DNA of 64,000 bases. Source: Gammaproteobacteria bacterium (GTDB taxonomy: Bacteria; Pseudomonadota; Gammaproteobacteria; CBDBNL01; JAAOII01). This document shows positions 6,671-32,463 of the stretch, piece after piece (within the stretch, counting starts at the first letter, position 1; each line of letters opens with the position of its first letter). Location of the stretch: the NCBI GenBank assembly GCA_965209035.1, contig OZ242372.1, positions 1 to 64,000 on the forward strand, written 5' to 3'. Made by a program: the position numbers and the translations under genes. Below the pieces are notes generated by a model. The model worked only from the letters and a program-made list of their open reading frames with translations, was not told the DNA's origin and made no database searches.

Positions 6671-7843
6671 ATGCGTATCCTCTTTTATTTAATTCGTTTC
6701 ATTAATATTTTATTAAGGCCACTTAAGAGGCGATGGCGGGATCGTCACGATGAGGAAACTGCGTTGCTTTCCTCTTTAAGAAAGGAGGAAGAAGAATTGA
6801 GAGTATTGGCTTCTGTTCCCGCGGAATGGCAAGATGAAGTTTTTGCTCTTAGAAAGATGTTTGATAAAAAGTTTTCTCGTTTTGTTGTTTGGGGATTAAA
6901 AGACTGTTACCATACCCATAAATTTATTCACAGGGCCTATTATTTCACGGCAAGAAAATTGGGTATTCCGACTGTGTGGTTGAAAGATGAACCGGCAAGT
7001 AACACATTATTGTTACCCGGTGATCTTGTTTTGGTCATTGCCGATAATGCGGGTTTTCCGCGATGGACTTCCGATAGTTGGATTCGGCCTCTGCCGAATA
7101 TTTCCTATATCTTTTATCGCAATTATCGCCATGATGTGATTTGTCAATTAAAAAAAGAGCAATATATCTTCTGGCAAGAGTACAAAATTCCTCCGGCAAG
7201 AGAGACGGGTCATATTCAGTCAGGCGTTTTTACAGGCTCCGAGTTTAAAGATTATTTATATCCGAATATGGACCATCCGGATACACAGCGGATTTCCGCC
7301 GCCGAAAATGTTGATGGTCTTCTTTTTAATCCCACCTTGCGTTTTTTAATTCAGCCCTATGGAACGGATCTGTTACCTTGGGAATTCCGGCCGCCGGTTT
7401 TTAATCCGGATACCAAAAAGGTGAATTATATTGGGAGTTTTTGGGATGGTAGTGCGGATGTTCTTTTACAATTTAATCGTTATCTGCACACTGTCGGGTT
7501 ACAGTTTTGTCTTTATCCTTCTGTGACCAGGGACAAGCAAATTGATTGTATTCGCCAATCCAGATTGGCACCTTCTATTAGCGGTAAACATGTTGTCTTG
7601 AATTATCCGCCGTGCCGTATGTATAAAAATATTTCTTACGGTCAGTTGGGGTATGCGAATGTTCCCATACATCAAAAACTCTACAGTACTTGTCTTCCAC
7701 CGGTGGGCAGTCTGGAAGAGATGACCGATTATGTGTTGGGTATGTCCAAAGATGATTATATTTCCATGACAGAAGCACAACAAAAAATTACGCAACAATT
7801 TACTTTCTTCCAGAATTTATGGAATATTTTCAAGTATTTTTGA
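6671..7843 (+). CDS. Putative glycosyltransferase-like protein A2
   Basis: Close copy of 4314..5483. Confidence 0.55.
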   Translation: MRILFYLIRFINILLRPLKRRWRDRHDEETALLSSLRKEEEELRVLASVPAEWQDEVFALRKMFDKKFSRFVVWGLKDCYHTHKFIHRAYYFTARKLGIPTVWLKDEPASNTLLLPGDLVLVIADNAGFPRWTSDSWIRPLPNISYIFYRNYRHDVICQLKKEQYIFWQEYKIPPARETGHIQSGVFTGSEFKDYLYPNMDHPDTQRISAAENVDGLLFNPTLRFLIQPYGTDLLPWEFRPPVFNPDTKKVNYIGSFWDGSADVLLQFNRYLHTVGLQFCLYPSVTRDKQIDCIRQSRLAPSISGKHVVLNYPPCRMYKNISYGQLGYANVPIHQKLYSTCLPPVGSLEEMTDYVLGMSKDDYISMTEAQQKITQQFTFFQNLWNIFKYF

Positions 7844-7850
7844 TATTTTT

Positions 7851-8984
7851 ATGTTCCTCCCTCACAGATCAAAAGGCGTTTCCATAGCATCTCCCCGGAT
7901 GTTTTTGTTTCGGTTAATGACCCGATTAAAGAGTTGGTATGGTCGTCACTATAGACAGAGCATACAGAATTTACAGCCACAGAACTTAGATCGCATTCGG
8001 GCGGAAGAAGAAAGCATCAGCACTGTGGTAGTTGTTCCCAAAGATTGGCAAGAGGAAGTGTTTTCCCTGCGACAAGAGTTTCATAAAAAATTTTCTCGTT
8101 TTGTTTTATGGGGTCTAAAAGACAAACTATTACCTGACAGATTCATTCACAGAGGTTATTATTTGACGGCAAAGAAATTGGGATTACCGACTGTATGGTT
8201 GGAAGATAGGATGGAGAATAATGCGTTACTAAGGCCCGGCGATTTGCTAATGGTTCTGGGCGACTATCCGTCGGCCATGAGATACGTCAGCACAGTGCTT
8301 CCAAGACCCGATGTTTATTATTGTTTTTATCGCACTTACAGAGATGATATTGTTCGGCAACTGCAACAAGAGAATTACTTATTAAGGCAAGAATATCGCA
8401 ACCACTTGTTATTTGGGTTACAAACAGTGGATACAATACGTATCTCGCAAACAGAGGGTCTTTATTATAACCCCACTTTCCGTTTTTTATGCCAGCCCTA
8501 TGGAACCGATCTGTTGCCTTGGGAGTTTCGCCAACCGGTTTTTAATCCGACTGGCCGGAATGTTAATTATGTTGGAACTCGTTGGCGGTCTAACGAAGAC
8601 AGCATTAAGCGGTTTGACAAGTATTTGCGTTCGGTTCGATTGAAATTTCAATTGCATTCGTTTGTTACTCTGGCCGAACACATTGATCTTATTCGTCAGT
8701 CCAGACTTGCGCCGGCTCTCGGCGGTTTGGATGTGGGACAAAATTATCCGCATTGTCGCATGTTTAAGAATATTTCTTACGGTCAATTGGGTTATACGGA
8801 TATTCCGATTCATCAAGATCTATACAGTCGTTGTCACCCGCCACTTGGGAGTCTTGAAGAGATGTCCGATTATGTTTTGAGCATGTCCGAAGACGATTAT
8901 ATTTCCATGACTGAGGCACAACAAAAAATTACCCGACGATTTACCTTCTTACAACACCTGGCGAACATATTCAAATACTTTTAA
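7851..8984 (+). CDS. Putative glycosyltransferase-like protein B2
   Basis: Close copy of 5491..6627. Confidence 0.55.
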   Translation: MFLPHRSKGVSIASPRMFLFRLMTRLKSWYGRHYRQSIQNLQPQNLDRIRAEEESISTVVVVPKDWQEEVFSLRQEFHKKFSRFVLWGLKDKLLPDRFIHRGYYLTAKKLGLPTVWLEDRMENNALLRPGDLLMVLGDYPSAMRYVSTVLPRPDVYYCFYRTYRDDIVRQLQQENYLLRQEYRNHLLFGLQTVDTIRISQTEGLYYNPTFRFLCQPYGTDLLPWEFRQPVFNPTGRNVNYVGTRWRSNEDSIKRFDKYLRSVRLKFQLHSFVTLAEHIDLIRQSRLAPALGGLDVGQNYPHCRMFKNISYGQLGYTDIPIHQDLYSRCHPPLGSLEEMSDYVLSMSEDDYISMTEAQQKITRRFTFLQHLANIFKYF

Positions 8985-9112: not shown

Positions 9113-10072
9113 TCATGTTTCATTTTTTACCGCACTTTTTAAGCGACCGACACGCAAAAGATACAATGGCAATAGCATCACCAACAGAATAAAACGGATA
9201 TAAGGTCTCCAACAAGCATGGCAATATATCATAGACTTAATACAACACCGCATAGCAAGTATGATTTTTCTTTCTTTTTGTGCTTTTTTACATGCCTTGT
9301 ACCATAAATCATGTATCACCTTGGTATATGGAGAATAAAAAAGTTGATTCTCTTTTGCAATCTCTTCGCGAATTTTCGACCATATCACATAACGGTCCGG
9401 TATGATTCCCGATAAATTGGGAGCATCACCCGATTGGGTTGTTCGGCGTTCCATAATGACCGCGCGTCCCTCAAGAACCTTCATCTGTACTCCTTGCAAT
9501 AATCTGCTAAAAAAGAACATATCATGACCCGTAGAATATTTCTCATCGAAACCGCCGACAGCCGCTACTTTTCGCAAACATAAAACAGAACAAGAAAGAA
9601 AACCCGCCCCATCTTGCATCATCCAAAGAATCGGATCATCGGCTAATTCGGTTAACTTGGAAAAAACACTGCGATCGTCATTAACTTCCACTCTGGGAAC
9701 ACAAACGCCTGCCAATCGAGGATCTTGGCGTAAGGACTGTTCGCAATGTTCCAAGAAAGTCATGGGAATCATATCGTCCGAGTCCAAAAAACAGACAAGA
9801 TCACAATCCCCCGCTTGTAGCAGGGACTTCAAGCCGGCATTGCGGGCCGCCGCCGCACCCAGATGTGGCAGATCCAACACTGTCGTCTCAAAAATAGGGT
9901 TTTTTTCTTTAACCCAATTCTGATAATTCTTAACGGTATCATCTGTGCTACCATCATCACACAGGATCAAGCGCGCCGGCTGCATCGTCTGCTTCAAAAC
10001 GGCATCCAATGTTCGTAAAAGGAGACTCTCGCGATTGTAAACAGGAATGATAATACAGACCTTCTTTCTCAT
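9113..10072 (-). CDS. Glycosyltransferase family 2
   Basis: IIIPVYNR, CDDGSTD, AARNAG, FLDSDD, GGFDE motifs. Confidence 0.92.
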   Translation of the reverse strand: MRKKVCIIIPVYNRESLLLRTLDAVLKQTMQPARLILCDDGSTDDTVKNYQNWVKEKNPIFETTVLDLPHLGAAAARNAGLKSLLQAGDCDLVCFLDSDDMIPMTFLEHCEQSLRQDPRLAGVCVPRVEVNDDRSVFSKLTELADDPILWMMQDGAGFLSCSVLCLRKVAAVGGFDEKYSTGHDMFFFSRLLQGVQMKVLEGRAVIMERRTTQSGDAPNLSGIIPDRYVIWSKIREEIAKENQLFYSPYTKVIHDLWYKACKKAQKERKIILAMRCCIKSMIYCHACWRPYIRFILLVMLLPLYLLRVGRLKSAVKNET

Positions 10073-22809: not shown

Positions 22810-23187
22810 ATGATTATTGGAATTGGCAGTGATATCACGGATATCCGACGAATTAAACGCGTCTATAAAAAATACGGACAACGATTTGTGCGCCGCATTC
22901 TGACCGAAGAAGAACAACAATCCTATGTGCGCCGCAAACATAAGGTCGCATACCTGGCAAAACGCTTTGCCGTCAAAGAAGCCGCTTCCAAAGCACTCGG
23001 CACCGGCATGAAAGGGGGCGTATCTTGGCGTCAAATCGCGGCCGTCAACAAACCGAGCGGAGAGCCCACCTTGCTCTTAAAAGCAAACGCCCGGAAGCGT
23101 TTTGAACATCTGGGCGGCAAGCAAGCATGGGTGAGCATCAGTGACGAAGGCGATTACGCCATTGCTTTTGTTATTCTGAGTGCTTAG
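22810..23187 (+). CDS. acpS: Holo-[acyl-carrier-protein] synthase
   Basis: GIGSDI, LAKRFAVKEAASKALGTG, VSISDE motifs. Confidence 0.95.
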   Translation: MIIGIGSDITDIRRIKRVYKKYGQRFVRRILTEEEQQSYVRRKHKVAYLAKRFAVKEAASKALGTGMKGGVSWRQIAAVNKPSGEPTLLLKANARKRFEHLGGKQAWVSISDEGDYAIAFVILSA

Positions 23188-23335
23188 AAGGTTTTAACGA
23201 ATCGTACATTTAAAAAAATTGGCATGACTGCCGAACAAAAAATCGGCATTGTTCCCCGGATTATAGATACGCAGAATAATCCTTTTAATTCTTTCTCCAA
23301 TGAGCACGAACCAACGATTCCGCGGCTATTCTCGG

Positions 23336-24505
23336 TTATTCTCGGTTTAGTAAATATTCCGGTTGCAGATACTGATCGTCCGGTAACTGATCCGCCGGCA
23401 AGTAAATCACAACTTGCTTCTTAAAGTTTTTGAGCGAGGAGCACATCATAGGCCCGACATCCTTCCATTCCAATCCTCCCAAACCGCAGCCCAAAGCCGG
23501 TAATGCAAGAGATTCCATACCAAGCCGTTCGTAATTTTGTGCCAAATAATTTAGTCCTTGTTTAATTCCCGGCAAGGGGGAAGGATGACGCCAATGTTCT
23601 TTTGTGGCAAACAGCAAAAACCAGCGAGGGCTGTTGAGTTTTTTGGGATTTAAGGTCTGTGATTCGTCCGCAAGCACCTCCTCCAAACGGATATCTCTCT
23701 TATAAAGAAAGGGCTGTCCCATCTTGAGTTGCCGACTACGACACACATCTTGATACTTAACATACACATCCGGAAATTGATATTTCGCCCGCGATGCCAG
23801 ACCTTTGCCCATGACTCCCTGCGTATTGACACTCACGGTGAGCGTCTGCATGTTAGAAAAAAACAGATCACCCTGTGCCAAAGAGATTTTATCGCTAATT
23901 TTGCGTCTCCAAGCGGGTTGAAAAAACATCGTCGGCTCTGCAACAGGCGATATTTGTTTAAAATTCAACAAACTGTGTTGCTCGGTATTTTGTTTGGCAA
24001 CATATATTCCCATAATGTTTTCCGGTGACACCTTCTCCGGCACGAGTAGTTCCGCCATAATTCGTCTTTTACTGCCGTCCGCTTCGTTCCAATATTCTCG
24101 CCGGAGATCTTTTTCATTAATGTGCTTTAAGTTCGCGCGGGTCGCCGGGTAAAAACAGGTTGCATAGTTGGCGGCATTGCCATCGGCAATATAGCCACCG
24201 GGCGTATTCCGGATCGCCGGATTAATTTCCAACACCGCAAGATCCTCCAAACGAAAGTTACAAATCAGACGATATAGCATCGGATTCCGCACTTGAAAGT
24301 AAAAATTAACATAATCTGTCAGTGGCTTACCGGTTGGCAAATGCTTTGCTTTCCGCCTTGACTGGACGCCGTCATCATGCACCCGGGCATAAGCAATGTC
24401 TTCATTTTCCAAAGGGCCGCGAGCATATATCCCTTGTTCCAATATGGATGACAGATTATCCCTGTGTGTGATATGGAAAAAACTCTCGGGAGTGAATTTT
24501 ATCAT
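23336..24505 (-). CDS. DarT (DUF4433) ssDNA ADP-ribosyltransferase fused to a DarG-type macrodomain
   Basis: N-half: HITH..NL.SIL..G, RR, DYVNFYF..RNPMLY, DGNAA, AELLV (catalytic Glu). C-half: GDLF, VNTQGVMGKGLA, FATKEHWR (catalytic Lys), SLALPALGCGLGGLEW. Confidence 0.88.
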   Translation of the reverse strand: MIKFTPESFFHITHRDNLSSILEQGIYARGPLENEDIAYARVHDDGVQSRRKAKHLPTGKPLTDYVNFYFQVRNPMLYRLICNFRLEDLAVLEINPAIRNTPGGYIADGNAANYATCFYPATRANLKHINEKDLRREYWNEADGSKRRIMAELLVPEKVSPENIMGIYVAKQNTEQHSLLNFKQISPVAEPTMFFQPAWRRKISDKISLAQGDLFFSNMQTLTVSVNTQGVMGKGLASRAKYQFPDVYVKYQDVCRSRQLKMGQPFLYKRDIRLEEVLADESQTLNPKKLNSPRWFLLFATKEHWRHPSPLPGIKQGLNYLAQNYERLGMESLALPALGCGLGGLEWKDVGPMMCSSLKNFKKQVVIYLPADQLPDDQYLQPEYLLNRE

Positions 24506-24585
24506 TTCCGGGTTTCCGGGTTTTCAGGTTTTCAGGTTTTATCGTTAGGATAATTTAATTTAAATTGCCGGAAATTCTTTTACGA

Positions 24586-27153
24586 CTATTCTTTTAGAAG
24601 GTTTTCAAACTGCTCCTGATAACGATTATCGAAAAGAATGCGCAAAGACATTGCCGAAGTCGGTTCCGCTTCCGCTTCCGTTGTTTGTAATCTCACACTT
24701 CCCGTTTCCCGGGCGTGAGGGGATATTTCTTCCAGCATTTTCAATACTTCTTCTTTATACTTTGTGTCCGCATTACCGGCAAGATGCATCCCCTTTGTTT
24801 CCATGATAAAGAGACGCTTGCTATGGCATTCGCTCGGATTGATACCGACTATGAAATCCGGGTATATTTTTTGTCGTCTCCAGCCCTGCAGCGTATATTC
24901 ATTTTCCTGTTTTGCCGCCACGCGGTGCCACCAATTCACGGCATCCTCACCGTTGATGTATAAGGCAAACGCTTTTTCAAGACTTGTAAATTCGTGTTCA
25001 TATAGGTCTTCAAACAGGGATTTATTAAAGTGCGCCCTAACATTAGACAAAGGTTGATCGGCACCGCCAACCAATTTCCGGACTTCCATTGGTAATTCGT
25101 AGTTATGATCGTCTATGGTCAGTTCAAATCGAATGTCACCATTTTTGAGTTTGGCCGTGAAGATCTGCTTTGCCTCTTCTTCCAACAGATCCGCGATCTG
25201 TTGCTTGATGGCGGCGGCAATATTGTACCGACGCTTAAAAATCCATTCATCATTTTTTCCGTCCTCTCGCAGCAACTTCAAAGCGGAACGCACAAACTTT
25301 GCCGCCGTCCAAGCATTCAAAGTCATATTTTCCAAGAATCTGACGAAGAACTCCGTGGTGATTTCCGGCTCCTGTGCCACCGTAGACCCCTGACTCGCAT
25401 CGGTGTTTAGCACACCCGGCAGATCAACTTGCATCACCGTTTCGTTGATGCGATCCAACGCGGCCCGGGTAATATTGGGTCGGGCGGACAGAAGATTATC
25501 CGGATTCAAATGGCTGAGTATATCCGCATCATAATCAATAGGGCGGTAGGTCTTTTTGTTTTCTTTGAAGAGGACCTTCGGTAAAAACACGCGTAACTTT
25601 TTAAATTCCTTGCGTCTGGAAAACTCCAATAATTCTCCTTCGTTTCGGGTGGTTCCGCCGCCGGGTTCGCCCAATATCAACTCGGCCGCATCGGCCAGGC
25701 CTTCCACTTCCAACCCTTTTTTAATTTTATTGAGAGCGGCCGTCACATCTTGGTTAAAACAATAGATATATGCTTGGTTTAATGCCTTGTAGGAGGTCGT
25801 TTCGGCACCCGGTTGGCGTAGCACTCGGCCGGTCATTTGTGTCAAAGCAAGCGGTGCTTTGGTTTTATCCAACAGGGTTAGAATGTAGGCAAAAGGGCAA
25901 TCCCATCCTTCGCGCAGGGCGTCTTTGGTAAGAATATAGCGCACTTGCGAATAGGGCGACAGAAGATCCTCATCGGCTATTTCGTCTTTTTCGGCGGTTT
26001 TACGGCGAATGAACTCGGGCGGAACATTTAATTCCTTAATCAGGTAATCCCGGACATCTTCGGCGTGAATGTATTCCGGTTTGTTTCTTTGCTCCTTGCC
26101 GACGCGCTGCACACGGATGAGCATAATAGGTCGGATATAACGGCCTGTCTCGGTTTTAAGTTTTTTGGCAGTGGCCTCCAGTTCTTCCAATTTTTCTTTG
26201 CTTTTGGCGAGTGTATGTTGCCAATCCGCGCTGCTAAAATTGTGTACCTTCAAAGGTAACTTAATCAGTTGCTCTTCTTTTAATTCCATACCGCCGATGT
26301 TCACCAGGATATTGCTATTTTCAGAAGACGGAGTGGCGGAAAGTTCCAAAACAAAGCGCGGGTTAAATTCCGATAACTTTTTCCTTCTGTTTGGCGAATA
26401 GGCATTGTGAGCTTCATCCAGAACAATAATCGGCCGGGCAATCTTTAACAGGTTGTAAAGACTGTGTTTTACCATTCCCGGGATACCCCTGTCTCCCATG
26501 TCATAAGTATCCAGATCCGGAAACTCGTCACAAAGCATCTTATTGGCATCCGAATCATCTTGCGGAGGAAAGAAACTCGGATATTTGCCACTGTCGCGAA
26601 AAAGGCGCAGAAAATTCCTCTCTTCTCGGTCCGCAGCCTGCAGCATTAAAGGCATGATGCATAAGTAATTTTGCGGGTCAAAACGGCTAATATTATCTTC
26701 TTTGGTTAGCAGTTTGATCTTGCCGCCGCTGGCACGTTCCAGTGCCTGACGATAGGGATGCATTCGGGTTGCAAATGCTTGCCAGGTTTGTTTGTAGATA
26801 GCCCGCGATGGTGTCATCCACAAAACCAATCCGGTTTGGACTTTCATTCTACCCAATGCCAGAGTTCCCAACAGGGTCTTACCGCCGCCGGTCGGCACTT
26901 TTAAGCAAACATGGGGAAAGGGTTCTTCGTTGCTGTTCAAACGCGAGACATAGGGAGTGCCGGCAACACGCCCTTGTTTTTGCAATGCTTTCCATGCATA
27001 GCGGGGATAATCCATATCTTCCGTTTCTATTGCTATTCCGCTATTTTTTAGAACACGAACACGCTTTTGAGTTTCGTCTTTTTGTCCGCTCAGTTCCTCC
27101 AAATAATGCGACAAGTCATCCAACGCCCGCACTTGAAAATTTTTCGGCTGCAT
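24586..27153 (-). CDS. res: Type III restriction-modification Res subunit (SF2 helicase plus PD-(D/E)xK nuclease)
   Basis: VPTGGGKT, LDEAH, LSATP, LREGWDCP, Q..GRVLRQP and C-terminal YPDFIV...ETKG motifs. Confidence 0.88.
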   Translation of the reverse strand: MQPKNFQVRALDDLSHYLEELSGQKDETQKRVRVLKNSGIAIETEDMDYPRYAWKALQKQGRVAGTPYVSRLNSNEEPFPHVCLKVPTGGGKTLLGTLALGRMKVQTGLVLWMTPSRAIYKQTWQAFATRMHPYRQALERASGGKIKLLTKEDNISRFDPQNYLCIMPLMLQAADREERNFLRLFRDSGKYPSFFPPQDDSDANKMLCDEFPDLDTYDMGDRGIPGMVKHSLYNLLKIARPIIVLDEAHNAYSPNRRKKLSEFNPRFVLELSATPSSENSNILVNIGGMELKEEQLIKLPLKVHNFSSADWQHTLAKSKEKLEELEATAKKLKTETGRYIRPIMLIRVQRVGKEQRNKPEYIHAEDVRDYLIKELNVPPEFIRRKTAEKDEIADEDLLSPYSQVRYILTKDALREGWDCPFAYILTLLDKTKAPLALTQMTGRVLRQPGAETTSYKALNQAYIYCFNQDVTAALNKIKKGLEVEGLADAAELILGEPGGGTTRNEGELLEFSRRKEFKKLRVFLPKVLFKENKKTYRPIDYDADILSHLNPDNLLSARPNITRAALDRINETVMQVDLPGVLNTDASQGSTVAQEPEITTEFFVRFLENMTLNAWTAAKFVRSALKLLREDGKNDEWIFKRRYNIAAAIKQQIADLLEEEAKQIFTAKLKNGDIRFELTIDDHNYELPMEVRKLVGGADQPLSNVRAHFNKSLFEDLYEHEFTSLEKAFALYINGEDAVNWWHRVAAKQENEYTLQGWRRQKIYPDFIVGINPSECHSKRLFIMETKGMHLAGNADTKYKEEVLKMLEEISPHARETGSVRLQTTEAEAEPTSAMSLRILFDNRYQEQFENLLKE

Positions 27154-27248: not shown

Positions 27249-28979
27249 TCAAATCCCACCCTCACCCAGACTGTCACCGAACATTCTGTGAATGGCATAG
27301 GGCAGTTGACAATAAGTGATCCCCATGCGACTCAAGTCTTTTTGTGAGATAAACTTCCAAGGAGCAAAAACCAAAGCAGTTTTCCCTTTGCTTTTTATCC
27401 GTTTTTGAATACGCTCGGCAACTTGCTTGGAAAGGGCGGAATCCCGATGGGTGAGAAATTTTATATCCTGCTCGTAAATCAAGTATAAGAGTTCTTTCTC
27501 TGTCTCGGCAAACAGATGGTCTGCCGGTCGGTTGACTTGCTCCAAAGAAAGACCGCAGGAAACATGAGCGAGATGGCGTGCCAAAGTATCATAGTCCGGC
27601 AGTTTCTCGCGGAGCATATTTTCCACACTGATTTCTTCGCCAAGGGTGCAGAAGGTAAAACTTCCGCCCAAAGGCTCCCCGTTTTTTTGATTTTTAGAGT
27701 GTTCTTTGCCTTTACTTTTGCCTTTAATCACTCTTCGCACGCGTTCGGCGGTAATCTTATCGGCATAGTCCTCGCACTCAACCAGAATAAACTTGCGGTT
27801 GCCGCCATCCTCCCGGTTCAAAGCCAGCACCGCATGCGCGGTGGTGCCGCTGCCGGCAAAAGAATCCAAAATAAGAGAGTTTTTATCCGTGGCTATGGCA
27901 AGTATTTTTTTTATCAGATGCAAGGATTTGGGAAATTGAAAAGAGTTTAATCCGAGATGATTTAAAATAGAAGTTCCGTGCATTGTTTGCATATTCGGAT
28001 CATCCCAAACAGATTTTGCTTTGATGGTATTTTTTCGTGTTTTTACTCCGATACACCATTCACCCGTCTGCTTTTTATAACCCACTAGTTCGCCAGACAG
28101 AGCGGAGGTGCCGGTATTTTCTAATACTTTTGGTTTACCCCACCTCCAACATTTGTCTGTTCCATTTTTCTTTGGCAAAACTTCTATGTCGCTTGTTTTT
28201 TTACGATTAAGACGGACAAGATAAAAATCCCGCAGATCATCTTTGGCGTTGATGTCTATGTAAATTGGAAAGTAAAGATTGGGTCTGTTTTGTCTTGAGA
28301 ATTTTGGATTCTCATTTTGCAAATCTCTTATGTTATGAGGTCCTGTCTCATCTTTATACTTAAATATCTTGTCCGGCTGAAGTAGCTCATTGATCAAAGC
28401 GCCACTACTTTTGCCATATACCAAGACATAGTCATGTTGGGTAGCAATTTGGTTGTAGTCTCTGCCACCCTTGTTAGTGATTACAATGATTTGTTCAATA
28501 AAATTCTCCGCGCCGAATATCTCATCCATCACCGGGCGCAGATATCCGACTTCATTATCGTCAATAGAAACAAAGATGACACCATCCTCGGCAAGGAGAT
28601 CGCGCAGCAGTTGTAATCTCGGCCACATCATACACAGCCACTTATCGTGGCGTTGCGGATCTTCGCGATCTATTGGCTTGTTCTCTTTGAGCCATGCTTG
28701 CATCAACGGCGAGTTGACCCGATCGTTATAGACCCAGCCTTCATTTCCCGTGTTATAGGGCGGGTCTATGTAAATGCAGTTCACCTTGCCGGCATAACGC
28801 GGCATCAGGGCCTTGAGGGCAACCAGATTATCGCCGTGAATGCTCAGATTACCGTCTTGTGTTGCTTTCTCACCCTTGGATACCAAAGACTTTTGAGCAT
28901 CCGGCGTTAATACTCTGTATCCTACGCCGAGATGATGGGCATAAACAAACTCTTTGCCTTGAAATTCAAGCGATGGCAT
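27249..28979 (-). CDS. mod: Type III R-M Mod subunit (adenine DNA methyltransferase)
   Basis: IHGDNL, IYIDPPYNTG, FVSIDDNE, FPK and ILDSFAGSGTTAHAV motifs; upstream of res. Confidence 0.9.
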   Translation of the reverse strand: MPSLEFQGKEFVYAHHLGVGYRVLTPDAQKSLVSKGEKATQDGNLSIHGDNLVALKALMPRYAGKVNCIYIDPPYNTGNEGWVYNDRVNSPLMQAWLKENKPIDREDPQRHDKWLCMMWPRLQLLRDLLAEDGVIFVSIDDNEVGYLRPVMDEIFGAENFIEQIIVITNKGGRDYNQIATQHDYVLVYGKSSGALINELLQPDKIFKYKDETGPHNIRDLQNENPKFSRQNRPNLYFPIYIDINAKDDLRDFYLVRLNRKKTSDIEVLPKKNGTDKCWRWGKPKVLENTGTSALSGELVGYKKQTGEWCIGVKTRKNTIKAKSVWDDPNMQTMHGTSILNHLGLNSFQFPKSLHLIKKILAIATDKNSLILDSFAGSGTTAHAVLALNREDGGNRKFILVECEDYADKITAERVRRVIKGKSKGKEHSKNQKNGEPLGGSFTFCTLGEEISVENMLREKLPDYDTLARHLAHVSCGLSLEQVNRPADHLFAETEKELLYLIYEQDIKFLTHRDSALSKQVAERIQKRIKSKGKTALVFAPWKFISQKDLSRMGITYCQLPYAIHRMFGDSLGEGGI

Positions 28980-29046: not shown

Positions 29047-29505
29047 CTAAATTTTTATATTCATTGCCAATAACATATTTTTCAATGTATCGCACCGAAC
29101 GCTTTCTATTTCACACACCAAGGGTATTTTGTAGTTTGATATCTTTGTTGGCCGGTCTTTTTGTATACCTTCATAAGTGATCACTGTTAACCGATGATAT
29201 TTGGCATAGGCAATCAGTTCGGCATCAATCTTGCTGATACCGATTCCTGTTTCTTGAATATCGTATTTTTCTCCAAATTGCAAAGCAATTTTTTTGACAC
29301 TTGGATCGATATCCTGTTTTTCTACTTTATGATTATCTATAAATTTCTGTAATTCTTCTATGCCTATTTCGCCATAAATGCATTTAAGCAAGATAAATTC
29401 TGTTTTGTGTTTTACTAATTGCTGCCATAAAGAAGGGAATACCGGGTAAGGATAATGTGTGTTCCATGCCGTTATGAAGACATTCGCGTCCAGGCAAAAC
29501 TTCAT
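29047..29505 (-). CDS. DUF4411 family PIN-like protein
   Basis: LDANVFI.AW..HYP..VFPSLW, DAELIAYA, VITYE and KIP.VC motifs; 4-bp overlap with the upstream gene. Confidence 0.8.
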   Translation of the reverse strand: MKFCLDANVFITAWNTHYPYPVFPSLWQQLVKHKTEFILLKCIYGEIGIEELQKFIDNHKVEKQDIDPSVKKIALQFGEKYDIQETGIGISKIDAELIAYAKYHRLTVITYEGIQKDRPTKISNYKIPLVCEIESVRCDTLKNMLLAMNIKI

Positions 29506-30683
29506 ACCATATCCTCCGTTTTCATGACATGATCAACCGATTTTGCACCAACGAGTTTACACAGTTTATGCAGACCAATTTCTTGATCATAATAGGCTTG
29601 CCAAACTGTTTTTAGATAGATATTGCCGAACTGCCGCACAATTTCTTTTGCACGATTCCTTGGCGGTCCTCCCTTGCTTTCTTTCTGTTTTTCCCCTTCT
29701 CTTTTATTTTGTTCTTTGAGTTCCAGTTCCAAGCGATAATATTCCTGCCGAGAGATCAGAGTTGCCCGTACGGCTCGCACGAGACATGCGTAGGTACTGA
29801 TCTTAAAATGCGCCGCCAATTTTCCGATGCCCTTCAATTCGGAGAGATCATACTTTTGCGCTTCTTGCATGAATACTGTTGATGGCATCAGGATACTTCC
29901 GGCAAGATCATCACACCATTTTTCTTCCTTTTGCCGGTGATTCGTCTGTTTGTTATTTTTATATTCGGCTGCCGGGTCTGTGTCAAGTGTGCTTTGTTTT
30001 TTCAGGAGATGCCCCAACTCGTGAAAGAGGGTAAAAGATTGGGCTTTATAAGAGTCCGAATCGTTGATGATGATCATTGGCAAAACATCGCGGAAAATGG
30101 CAAGACCGCGCATCTTGTTTATATCAATTTTCGAAAAGCCGGGATACTTGCCGGTCATGAATACGAAAATATTTTTATCTTCCAAACGTCGGCGCCACTC
30201 GTCAAAATCAAAACAGTCCGCTGCGGAACAGTCAAGCCACTGACGAACGGATATCGCCATATCGGCCGCTTCCTCTTTTAGAGGAGGAGGTGAAAACGCA
30301 GGGATGGGGTTTTTAGCATTCTCTCTAAAATTCAAAAGCATAGTACGCATGAGGGTGTCCGTTTTATGGACAACTTTTATTAATTCCGCATCTTGCAATG
30401 CGTCTTTTTTATCTTTGCGAAGTCTTCGGAAAGAAGGGTTTGTTGCAAAATGATATTTTTCAGGCAGTTTTTTGGCAATAAACACCCAATCCGGGACACC
30501 GTAAAGTTTGGCAAGTACCTCCAACTGATTAAAGGTGGGAGCGATTTCGCCTTGTTCCATTTTTTGAATTCGGGGAACCTTCTTTTGCACCTCGTCCAAA
30601 GTGAGAAATACTTGCTCGCGGCATTCGCGCAAGGTTGTGCAATTCATCTTTTCGATGATCCCTATTCTTCCCACAGTGGTCAT
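29502..30683 (-). CDS. XRE HTH plus ImmA/IrrE zinc metallopeptidase
   Basis: N-terminal HTH (MEQGE..PTFNQLEVLAKLY), FTLFHELGH (HExxH) and EKWCDDLAGSILMP motifs. Confidence 0.88.
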   Translation of the reverse strand: MTTVGRIGIIEKMNCTTLRECREQVFLTLDEVQKKVPRIQKMEQGEIAPTFNQLEVLAKLYGVPDWVFIAKKLPEKYHFATNPSFRRLRKDKKDALQDAELIKVVHKTDTLMRTMLLNFRENAKNPIPAFSPPPLKEEAADMAISVRQWLDCSAADCFDFDEWRRRLEDKNIFVFMTGKYPGFSKIDINKMRGLAIFRDVLPMIIINDSDSYKAQSFTLFHELGHLLKKQSTLDTDPAAEYKNNKQTNHRQKEEKWCDDLAGSILMPSTVFMQEAQKYDLSELKGIGKLAAHFKISTYACLVRAVRATLISRQEYYRLELELKEQNKREGEKQKESKGGPPRNRAKEIVRQFGNIYLKTVWQAYYDQEIGLHKLCKLVGAKSVDHVMKTEDMV

Positions 30684-30945: not shown

Positions 30946-32463
30946 ATGAATAAGCGGGAGTTCTCCCGCCAGGTTACGGCAGGCTATAAACGCATCCCGC
31001 TTGTCCGTCAGCACCCGGCGGATCTGGATACACCGGTTAGTACTTATCTAAAAATCGCAAATAAACCCTACACCTACCTGTTGGAATCGGTCGTGGGCGG
31101 CGAACGCCGGGGGCGGTATTCTTTCATCGGATTGTCTTCAAGCCGGATTTACAAACTGCGCGGGGAGCAGCTGACAATTTTGGAAGGCGACAAAGAATCT
31201 GTCATAACACCGAAAGATCCGTTGACCTATATCGGAAATCTGGTGACCGGAAAAACGGTTCCGCCCTTGCCCGGCTTACCGCGTTTTCACGGCGGGCTGG
31301 TCGGTTATTTTTCACACGAATGTGTGGGCTGGACGGAGGCGCGCCTGCGGCATCTTTTGAAAAAAGAGGATTCACTCCAATGTCCGCATGTTCTTTTGTT
31401 GGAAACGGAAAAGATGGTTGTCTTTGATAATCTGCTCGGCAAGATTTTACTCATCTCCTATGCGGATGCGGAAGGCGAGAACACCCGGGAACGCGCGCTG
31501 GAAGGGCTGGATGCAATGGAAGAGATGCTGACGGCACCGTTCGCCGCGCGTAGCGCACATGATTTTTCTCTTTCGCTTGAGACAACCAGCGGCGCCTTGC
31601 CGGAATTGACGGACAGCGAGTATAGCAAACACAAACAAGACGAAGCCGCCTATTGTCGGGCGGTGGAGACCATCAAGAATTACATCAGAGCGGGCGATGT
31701 GATGCAAGTGGTGCCTTCGCAACGCATGCGGCTGCGCTACGCGCATAAGCCATTTGATTTTTACCGCTTGCTGCGCACTGTCAATCCCGCCCCCTATATG
31801 TTTTACTTTGATATGGATGACTTTCAACTTGCGGGGGCTTCTCCCGAAATTCTCTCCCGTCTGGAAGACGGCGAGGTCACTCTGCGACCCATTGCCGGCA
31901 CAAGGCCGCGCGGAAAAACCGAAGCCGAAGACCTGGCATTGGAAAAGGAGATGCTGACAGACCCAAAAGAAAGAGCGGAGCATGTGATGTTGATCGATCT
32001 GGCACGCAACGACCTCGGGCGAATTGCCGAAACGGGCACAGTGGAAGTGACGGATAACTTTTCGGTGGAACGATATTCGCGAGTGATGCATATCGTTTCC
32101 AATGTGCGCGGCAAACTCCGAAAGGGATTAAATGCTATGGATGTTCTGCGCGCATCCTTGCCTGCCGGCACCCTAAGCGGTGCCCCCAAAATACGCGCCA
32201 TTGAAATTATTGACGAACTGGAAGAGGAGCAGCGCGGCGTTTACGGCGGTGCTCTGGGGTATCTGGGCTGGAACGGTAATATGGATCTGTGCATCTGCAT
32301 CCGAACGATTGTCATTAAAGACGGTTTTATTTATGTTCAGGCGGGCGGCGGAGTTGTTGCGGATTCGCAGCCGGACACCGAATGGGAAGAAACCCTGAAC
32401 AAACGGCGGGCTATTTTTCAGGTGATGAATATGCTCAACGCAACCAACAGAAATGAAGCATAA
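30946..32463 (+). CDS. trpE: Anthranilate synthase component I
   Basis: ADLDTPVS.YLK, LLESVVGGE..GRYS, NPAPYMF, PIAGTRPRG, AEHVMLIDLARND, PAGTLSGAPKIRA motifs. Confidence 0.95.
   Translation: MNKREFSRQVTAGYKRIPLVRQHPADLDTPVSTYLKIANKPYTYLLESVVGGERRGRYSFIGLSSSRIYKLRGEQLTILEGDKESVITPKDPLTYIGNLVTGKTVPPLPGLPRFHGGLVGYFSHECVGWTEARLRHLLKKEDSLQCPHVLLLETEKMVVFDNLLGKILLISYADAEGENTRERALEGLDAMEEMLTAPFAARSAHDFSLSLETTSGALPELTDSEYSKHKQDEAAYCRAVETIKNYIRAGDVMQVVPSQRMRLRYAHKPFDFYRLLRTVNPAPYMFYFDMDDFQLAGASPEILSRLEDGEVTLRPIAGTRPRGKTEAEDLALEKEMLTDPKERAEHVMLIDLARNDLGRIAETGTVEVTDNFSVERYSRVMHIVSNVRGKLRKGLNAMDVLRASLPAGTLSGAPKIRAIEIIDELEEEQRGVYGGALGYLGWNGNMDLCICIRTIVIKDGFIYVQAGGGVVADSQPDTEWEETLNKRRAIFQVMNMLNATNRNEA

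Follow-up and report, generated by a model that had tools for sequence, protein, structure and literature searches.

A single-chain DarT-macrodomain protein beside a type III restriction-modification system as a candidate self-neutralised defence module

How can an enzyme be switched on when its own eraser is tethered to it at a ratio of one to one, and when the inhibitor domain that would bind it is missing? This puzzle is raised by a gene in the first 64,000 nucleotides of contig OZ242372.1 (assembly GCA_965209035.1, Gammaproteobacteria bacterium), a stretch that we analysed as a whole and refer to as the window. The gene, which we call the fusion, encodes a DarT ADP-ribosyltransferase followed by a DarG-type macrodomain in one chain of 389 amino acids (aa). 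We find that it is almost certainly a member of a widespread family of single-chain DarTG proteins whose prototype is Protein Data Bank (PDB) entry 7OMU. We further read it, with good confidence, as a DarT2-like ADP-ribosyltransferase acting on single-stranded DNA (ssDNA) that is joined to a macrodomain hydrolase of the DarG/TARG1 type, and we regard a self-neutralised defence module as its most likely role. The parts of the gene, with the evidence by which each was placed, are as follows.

23336..24505, minus strand: single-chain DarT-macrodomain (DarTG fusion) gene, 389 aa (open reading frame, PDB 7OMU match, fold match)
23906..24505, minus strand: DarT ADP-ribosyltransferase domain, residues 1-200 (Pfam PF14487, residue conservation, profile alignment to DarT structures)
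23888..23959, minus strand: conserved inter-domain segment, residues 183-206, consensus PEPxMFFxP (36-sequence alignment, model)
23372..23887, minus strand: DarG/TARG1-type macrodomain, residues 207-378 (PADLOC DarG, alignments to 5M31, 5M3E and 5M3I, K302 conservation)

Two domains and their active sites in one chain

The open reading frame (ORF) of the fusion starts at an ATG preceded by only six open codons and runs on without interruption, carrying the motifs HITH (residue 11), RR (50), DYVNFYF (64) and AELLV (151) in its DarT half and FATKEHWR (299) in its macrodomain. Pfam places DarT (PF14487, also DUF4433) at residues 10-182 (E 1.9e-41; 142.5 bits with the cut-off at 22.5; positions 1-183 of a 201-position profile) and Macro at residues 226-352 (E 9.3e-6), each above its gathering score, and the PADLOC profiles for DarT (E 1e-36) and DarG (E 1.8e-45) match as well. 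The PADLOC DarG match spans residues 207-376 and profile positions 2-151 of 329, the NCBIfam DarG profile is matched over positions 1-156 of 338 only, and the protein terminates 11 residues past the DarG macrodomain match. Because the profile match stops midway and the chain ends there, we conclude that the fusion lacks the C-terminal half of DarG, by which DarG binds DarT. The chain closes with an acidic tail (residues 371-389).

The DarT catalytic set is present as H14, R51, Y69, M76, N110 and E152 (codon 24050-24052), and the macrodomain has the motifs GVMGKG (at 230) and GCGLGG (at 339) together with a catalytic-type lysine, K302 (codon 23600-23602). To gauge how strictly these positions are kept, we scored residue conservation in the best 120 fused homologues, all of them 379-421 aa long. 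H14, R51, M76, E152 and K302, as well as each of the glycines G339, G341 and G343, occur in 120 of 120; N110 occurs in 119 of 120, and Y69 in 115 of 120, with Phe in the other five. Such strict conservation at both catalytic sites argues that both are intact and under selection, and it is highly likely that the two predicted activities, transfer of ADP-ribose and its removal, are real. The first-pass annotation, made from the letters alone, had described an uninterrupted 389-aa ORF joining an apparently intact DarT to a DarG-type macrodomain whose C-terminal DarT-binding domain was absent, and had named profile matches to DUF4433 and Macro as a check; the ORF, its five quoted motifs, the Pfam and PADLOC matches, the point at which the DarG profiles stop and the conserved catalytic residues bear that description out in full.

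A search of PDB sequences returns chain 7omu_AAA (406 aa) at E 9.4e-109, with residues 8-387 of the fusion aligned to 25-405. An AlphaFold2 model of the fusion built with 36 homologues (mean predicted local distance difference test score, pLDDT, 89.8; predicted template modelling score 0.87) likewise has 7OMU as its best Foldseek match (template modelling, TM, score 0.91/0.94; root-mean-square deviation 1.7 Å; 45% identity). Because this superposition extends over the whole chain, the two domains are packed compactly and in one fixed arrangement in both proteins, DarT first and macrodomain second, and not as beads on a string. Entry 7OMU bears the title 'Thermosipho africanus DarTG in complex with ADP-ribose' and the release date 2021-06-23; its source paper is, we presume, Schuller et al., Nature 2021. 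The Thermosipho construct, like the fusion, has no DarT-binding domain; it differs in organism and sequence, and its crystallised chain has Ala at the position of the catalytic glutamate, E152 in the fusion. E160A and E152A are the usual inactivating substitutions in DarT (PMC11543638, PMC5179494). Further structural matches of the model include the DarG macrodomains of Thermus aquaticus and Mycobacterium tuberculosis (5M3E, 5M31 and 5M3I, with TMt 0.91 for the macrodomain fold against 5M3E), Thermus DarT (7OMY, 7OMV), the M. tuberculosis DarTG complex (7YK3) and human TARG1.

The segment between the domains bears directly on whether they could be parted. In the alignment of 36 sequences F194, F195 and P197 are invariant and P191 is nearly so, and the model has a helix at 191-194 and a strand at 199-202. 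Despite a dip in model confidence at residues 171-190 (block pLDDT 65 and 79), a segment predicted to be both conserved and structured argues against a floppy, disposable tether exposed to proteases.

As far as sequence can tell, the DarT half is DarT2-like rather than DarT1-like. H14, R51, Y69 and E152 align with the catalytic set of Thermus DarT. In DarT2 the glutamate (E160) is the catalytic residue of the transferase, the arginine (R51) abstracts a proton and a methionine stabilises the oxocarbenium intermediate; the H-Y-E motif has a tyrosine where DarT1 has Ser63, and DarT1 has an extra catalytic aspartate (Asp54) two residues after the arginine (PMC11543638). The assignment follows from four features of the fusion: Tyr69 stands at the H-Y-E position; the sequence R51-K52-A53 leaves no DarT1-type Asp; a macrodomain, not a NADAR partner, is present in cis; and a profile of the fused family's DarT domain scores best against Thermus DarT2 (E 5.3e-18), ahead of M. 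tuberculosis DarT (3.4e-13) and Escherichia coli C7 DarT1 (8.7e-13). One position departs from the Thermus enzyme, in that Asn110 aligns with the thymine-coordinating histidine of Thermus DarT2 (H119, chain index 120). M. tuberculosis DarT and the guanine-specific E. coli C7 DarT1 likewise have Asn there, so this residue does not decide between thymine and guanine.

Set beside the two-gene DarTG2 systems of T. aquaticus, M. tuberculosis and enteropathogenic E. coli (EPEC; structures 7OMV, 7YK3, 5M31 and 5M3I), the fusion thus shares the DarT fold with its H/Y/E residues, proton-abstracting Arg and Met, and a DarG-type macrodomain in which K302 of FATKEHWR falls, in the alignment to 5M31, on the catalytic Lys (K80 in T. 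aquaticus) of that chain's FPTKKHWR motif. It differs in being one gene instead of two, in a DarT half that is only about 22% identical and has Asn110 in place of the Thermus histidine, and in lacking the C-terminal domain of DarG, which in those systems binds DarT and mimics ssDNA (PMC11543638, PMC11481870). DarTG1 (DarT1 with NADAR; 8BAQ) also combines a DarT-fold transferase acting on ssDNA with an enzymatic antitoxin, activities that are predicted for the fusion; it differs in targeting guanine, in having Ser for the H-Y-E tyrosine and the extra Asp, and in its NADAR antitoxin (PMC11543638).

Abundance, architectures and spread of the family

To establish how common the architecture is, we searched a collection of 5.8 billion proteins, clustered at 90% identity, for chains of 213-681 aa that match the fusion at E <= 1e-5, and obtained 2577 clusters. 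For 107 of the 120 best homologues the precomputed family column lists both PF14487 and PF01661 (PF14487 alone for the other 13), and NCBI labels some homologues 'DarT ssDNA thymidine ADP-ribosyltransferase family protein'. Among contigs drawn from one genome per species across many phyla, relatives are encoded in at least 535 of 597 candidate stretches; the 80 loci that we kept come from Poribacteria, Nostocales, Acidobacteriota, Chloroflexota, Bdellovibrionales, Planctomycetota, Ignavibacteria, Latescibacteria and others, and in all of them identity to the fusion is 46-51%. The survey of fusion frequency proposed in the first-pass annotation therefore finds a common form, and the novelty which that annotation had made conditional on the lack of a prior characterisation does not hold up: 7OMU is such a characterisation at the structural level, with equal architecture, and the family is very large. 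The architecture is already annotated, abundant and crystallised, and as a sequence feature the fusion adds little. Open full-text literature yielded no mention of DarT together with Thermosipho africanus, or of '7OMU'; the available portions of PMC11125620, PMC9411070, PMC13309987, PMC10884400 and PMC9503650 yielded nothing on the fused form; and we found no functional study of a fused DarTG in the openly searchable literature, beyond whose reach Schuller 2021 and LeRoux 2022 lie.

The macrodomain is only one of the partners with which DarT is found. A profile of the DarT half matches 4552 clusters (50% identity) at E <= 1e-3, 2396 at E <= 1e-10 and 528 at E <= 1e-30. We classed the 150 best representatives with local DarT and macro profiles, leaving out 23 whose DarT match covered fewer than 150 profile positions. 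Of the remaining 127, 28 have a macro half, 77 are of stand-alone size (some of them perhaps fragments at contig ends), 19 carry DarT at the C-terminus of another protein, and 3 have a C-terminal extension without a macro match. A Pfam scan of the 37 longest representatives identified PLDc_2, Sel1 repeats and Prim-Pol among the N-terminal partners; P0188, P0195, P0251 and P0270 are C-terminal-DarT fusions, and several of the N-terminal regions match no Pfam family. So varied a set of partners marks DarT as a modular domain, for which fusion to a macrodomain is one populous architecture among several. In a quick, unfinished tree of the DarT domain, in which 61 of 124 inner branches are open, all 28 macro-fused rows fall into one group of 60 rows (Shimodaira-Hasegawa approximate likelihood ratio test, SH-aLRT, 92) together with 23 rows classed as stand-alone, which may be contig-end fragments; at so poor a resolution we cannot claim a single origin of the fusion.

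The source genome (2.24 Mb in 2 contigs, 92.7% complete) holds one copy, and a search of 40 relatives, four of them from the same family, one from the same order and the remainder from the same class, returned no full-length match to the fusion. Macro-only matches were found in 3 of the 40, in frames of 356-381 aa, and in one of these three a 204-aa DarT frame adjoins the macro frame, forming a canonical split DarTG2. Its absence from the 40 relatives identifies the fused gene as accessory. The nearest homologues in species-representative genomes, at about 50% identity, are in unrelated phyla, a distribution that points to horizontal transfer, as is typical of defence genes; we conclude that the fused gene was probably acquired horizontally. 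No empty site could be defined for the island, since in same-family genomes the trpE and 5'-nucleotidase gene homologues are separated by more than 500 kb.

The two plasmid matches that we inspected (H1 and H4) are two-gene DarTG systems, with a 210-aa DarT and a macro protein of 335-347 aa, and the remaining plasmid matches listed are likewise annotated as two features. Among phage records, query coverage is below 80% in 142 of 143, and 9 of the 10 matches listed involve the macro half only. One match, at 879-1910 of the unannotated 7.5-kb 'Bacteriophage sp.' contig MT837167.1 (H16), is a single alignment to residues 9-369 of the fusion (27% identity); this phage-like contig may carry a fused or an adjacent DarT-macro pair.

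The gene cluster at the window and at related loci

The fusion is the last of five minus-strand genes in a 7.3-kb cluster that is bounded by acpS (22810-23187, plus strand) and an anthranilate-synthase gene (30946-32463, plus strand). Upstream of it, in the direction of transcription, the cluster comprises the following.

29502..30683, minus strand: helix-turn-helix (HTH) and Peptidase_M78 (ImmA/IrrE-like) protein, 393 aa, RosmerTA RmrA-like (Pfam Peptidase_M78 E 5.1e-13, HTH_31)
29047..29505, minus strand: DUF4411 (PIN-like) protein, 152 aa, candidate toxin partner (Pfam DUF4411 E 1.8e-18)
27249..28979, minus strand: type III DNA methyltransferase (Mod), 576 aa (PADLOC MTase_III E 3.9e-150, Pfam N6_N4_Mtase E 1.4e-32)
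24586..27153, minus strand: type III restriction enzyme (Res), 855 aa (PADLOC REase_III E 3.6e-207, Pfam ResIII)
24506..24585, minus strand: gap between res and the fusion, 80 nt (promoter/terminator scan)

Three defence-type modules are thus packed into 7.3 kb: the HTH-M78/DUF4411 pair, a type III restriction-modification (R-M) system and the fusion. The R-M system has full-length Mod and Res genes adjacent on the same strand (Res residues 1-846 align with positions 1-875 of the 883 in PADLOC REase_III). The HTH-M78 protein matches PADLOC RmrA (E 1e-16; residues 11-331 against profile positions 4-307 of 384) and its ORF overlaps that of the DUF4411 protein by 4 nt; PADLOC returned no match for the DUF4411 protein. 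The two may form a RosmerTA-like toxin-antitoxin pair. Between 28 and 30.5 kb the GC content drops to 0.38-0.43, compared with 0.47 in the window as a whole. The promoter and terminator scan, whose counts are within the shuffle range overall, placed no site between res and the fusion, and no obvious Shine-Dalgarno sequence precedes the start codon in 24506-24560. On the coding strand, the same 24506-24560 stretch holds short tandem repeats, AAAACCTG twice and GGAAACCC twice, directly before the start codon.

We compared this setting with the neighbourhoods of the 80 related loci, of which L002, L003 and L077 were lost from the ORF calls (in L002 and L003 an overlapping ORF was preferred); 74 of the 77 remaining had a scannable upstream neighbour, and 74 a scannable downstream one. 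An R-M gene adjoins the fusion in 7 of the 80 loci. In L002 and L003, from sponge symbionts, the order is fusion-mod-...-res, and Mod and Res are homologous to those of the window (53% and about 44%); in L010 the fusion is preceded by an R.HinP1I-like gene and followed by an N6_N4 methylase gene; in L027 ResIII and RE_endonuc follow the fusion; and a Type ISP enzyme (L054), an HSDR_N gene (L072) and a T1RH-like_C gene (L073) adjoin it in the other three. Two-gene DarTG has likewise been found with type I R-M systems (Jankevicius 2016, PMC5179494).

In two of these loci the junction itself is informative. A direct repeat of 199 nt at 82% identity flanks the fusion in L003 (7718-7916 and 9165-9363), and the repeats in L002 are shorter, at 84 and 40 nt, with those at 7832-7915 and 9272-9355 flanking the fusion. 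The repeated sequence corresponds to about 64 codons at the 5' end of a type III mod gene, a homologue of the one in the window, and the arrangement resembles a scar left when a cassette inserted into, or recombined with, an R-M operon. PIN-domain genes are also present inside the L002 and L003 R-M loci.

Other neighbours recur in particular lineages. In 15 of 74 loci, every one from Nostocales, the fusion begins next to or within the end of a Ser/Thr kinase gene. This suggests a conserved kinase-DarTG operon in Nostocales, although the loci are related and may represent one evolutionary event. The kinases are about 380-400 aa long, and their genes end at about 7980-8004 in these loci (L016, L019, L020, L024, L031, L033, L034, L043, L050, L052, L057, L064, L066, L069 and L076). 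In 4 of 74 loci, from Chloroflexota, a photolyase-type FAD_binding_7 gene encoding about 300 aa lies downstream of the fusion on the same strand (L011, 9231-10103; L014, 2600-3511; L047, 9277-10155; L062, 9177-10079) and is followed by a 157-aa ORF, making a link between DNA ADP-ribosylation and DNA repair possible. Defence-like neighbours outside the R-M class include HNH, WYL, AAA_15, AAA_35 (in Poribacteria), DUF87/HerA with ResIII, and transposases. In L035 (Acidobacteria) a stand-alone DarT gene (677-1291, 205 aa, Pfam E 2.5e-31) lies directly upstream of the fusion (1320-2528), a gene pair that amounts to two writers and one eraser. Across these loci the fusion acts as a one-gene module that needs no fixed partner and is found in varied settings, R-M operons among them.

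Proposed role and competing explanations

The first-pass annotation had suggested a self-inhibited switch, freed by a phage trigger or by proteolysis, or else an enzyme for reversible marking of DNA. We propose that the DarT half would transfer ADP-ribose from NAD+ to a base in ssDNA, probably thymine by analogy with two-gene systems, and that the macrodomain would take this mark off again. The covalent link and the fixed interface between the domains would stand in for the domain with which DarG of two-gene DarTG2 binds DarT non-covalently. As long as the cell is not infected, the eraser would hold net modification near zero; a surge of ssDNA, or a blocked eraser, as might arise during phage replication, would let marks persist until replication of the phage or the host stalls, so that the fusion could back up the R-M system as a second line of defence. 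Fused toxin-antitoxin proteins that are activated by direct binding of a phage protein provide a parallel (PMC11481870). CapRel(SJ46) combines a toxin with a neutralising domain in one chain, as the fusion does; it differs in fold and chemistry, which are unrelated, and in that its antitoxin is a steric inhibitor, whereas that of the fusion is predicted to be an enzyme that reverses the toxin's product. Two-gene DarTG defends against phages, and a comparable role of the fusion is, in our judgement, slightly favoured. A more specific version, which would make single-chain DarTG an anti-phage switch complete in itself, freed by a trigger, carried as a one-gene cassette that prefers R-M operons, and backing up restriction by placing ADP-ribose on the ssDNA of phages that evade cutting, is offered tentatively and is rather unlikely as it stands; the hint of a cassette comes from L002 and L003, where the fusion is flanked by the duplicated, 82%-identical mod 5' end, and from L010, where it sits between the R.HinP1I-like and methylase genes.

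Several points weigh against reading the fusion as a defence module. Its function is a prediction from sequence, model and analogy, and base specificity is not readable from its residues. Its scores fall short of the NCBIfam equivalog cut-offs for both DarT (103.3 against 150 bits) and DarG (144.9 against 250 bits), by which measure it does not count as an equivalog of the two-gene proteins that have been characterised. Most related loci have no adjoining R-M or recognised defence gene, many of the neighbours are housekeeping genes, and the defence-island context at the window may be coincidental. Finally, the gap between res and the fusion offers no promoter or terminator evidence to link the two, which may or may not be co-transcribed.

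Some of the same observations would suit a housekeeping-type enzyme of reversible DNA marking or replication control, in which steady-state marks on host ssDNA (for example at origins or forks) tune growth and no phage switch is involved. Fixed 1:1 stoichiometry and strictly conserved active sites fit a futile-cycle or steady-state enzyme, as do the many related loci among housekeeping genes; the Nostocales kinase at the start of the fusion suggests control by signalling, the FAD_binding_7 gene that follows the fusion in Chloroflexota fits this alternative as well, and control of DNA replication and growth has been named as a role of DarTG (PMC11543638). The patchy, accessory distribution, with the fused form in 0 of 40 relatives, stands against it, as do the clustering of the fusion with an R-M system and a toxin-antitoxin-like pair and the signs of horizontal transfer in its nearest homologues, and we regard this alternative as improbable.

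Less probable still, to the point of being very unlikely, is the reading that the fusion stabilises the R-M island next to it as a classical module of post-segregational addiction. Stabilisation of the locus has been put forward as one possible reason for finding DarTG in R-M operons (Jankevicius 2016, PMC5179494), and the fusion gene directly follows res. A type II toxin-antitoxin system consists of separate genes for a toxin and a labile antitoxin, whereas we find one ORF and no second copy of DarT or DarG in the genome. Since both halves are made and degraded together, regulation by the classical loss of a labile antitoxin would require the chain to be cut, and the conserved, structured segment between the domains offers no loose linker for this; nor is there a DarT-binding antitoxin domain.

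The fusion is genuine and not an artefact of assembly: a homologue of equal length (389 aa) exists at 93% identity, the same architecture recurs in thousands of proteins, and Logan contigs from three runs span the ORF and match it with neither a difference nor a gap (one record covers 23305-24652), although these runs represent one sample, possibly the window's own source, and are not independent. The stop or frameshift between the domains that the first-pass annotation had named as a possible refutation is absent from those contigs; a raw-read run of the same species label (X4) contributed 2 reads only, at 95-99% likeness, and is uninformative either way. That the gene arose by a frameshift or misassembly joining two genes, or is decaying, can be dismissed as barely conceivable, since nothing at the window favours it, a crystal structure of a fused homologue exists and every catalytic residue is intact. 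Signs of decay are seen elsewhere, in 2 of the 80 related loci: the ORFs of L047 (8001-8600) and L024 (8001-8208) are shortened and open only some 200 nt into the match, and the DarT part of L047 is interrupted by an in-frame stop. In these two the toxin half may be decaying, or the sequences may contain errors.

The self-neutralised defence module thus remains the reading that we prefer. If the more specific idea of a trigger-released cassette were also true, then the trigger, the target base and the synergy with R-M of the fused form would all be new. One use of DarT2 for DNA editing has been reported (PMC13368585, abstract), and a compact, one-gene writer and eraser of DNA ADP-ribosylation would be of interest for DarT-based editing tools.

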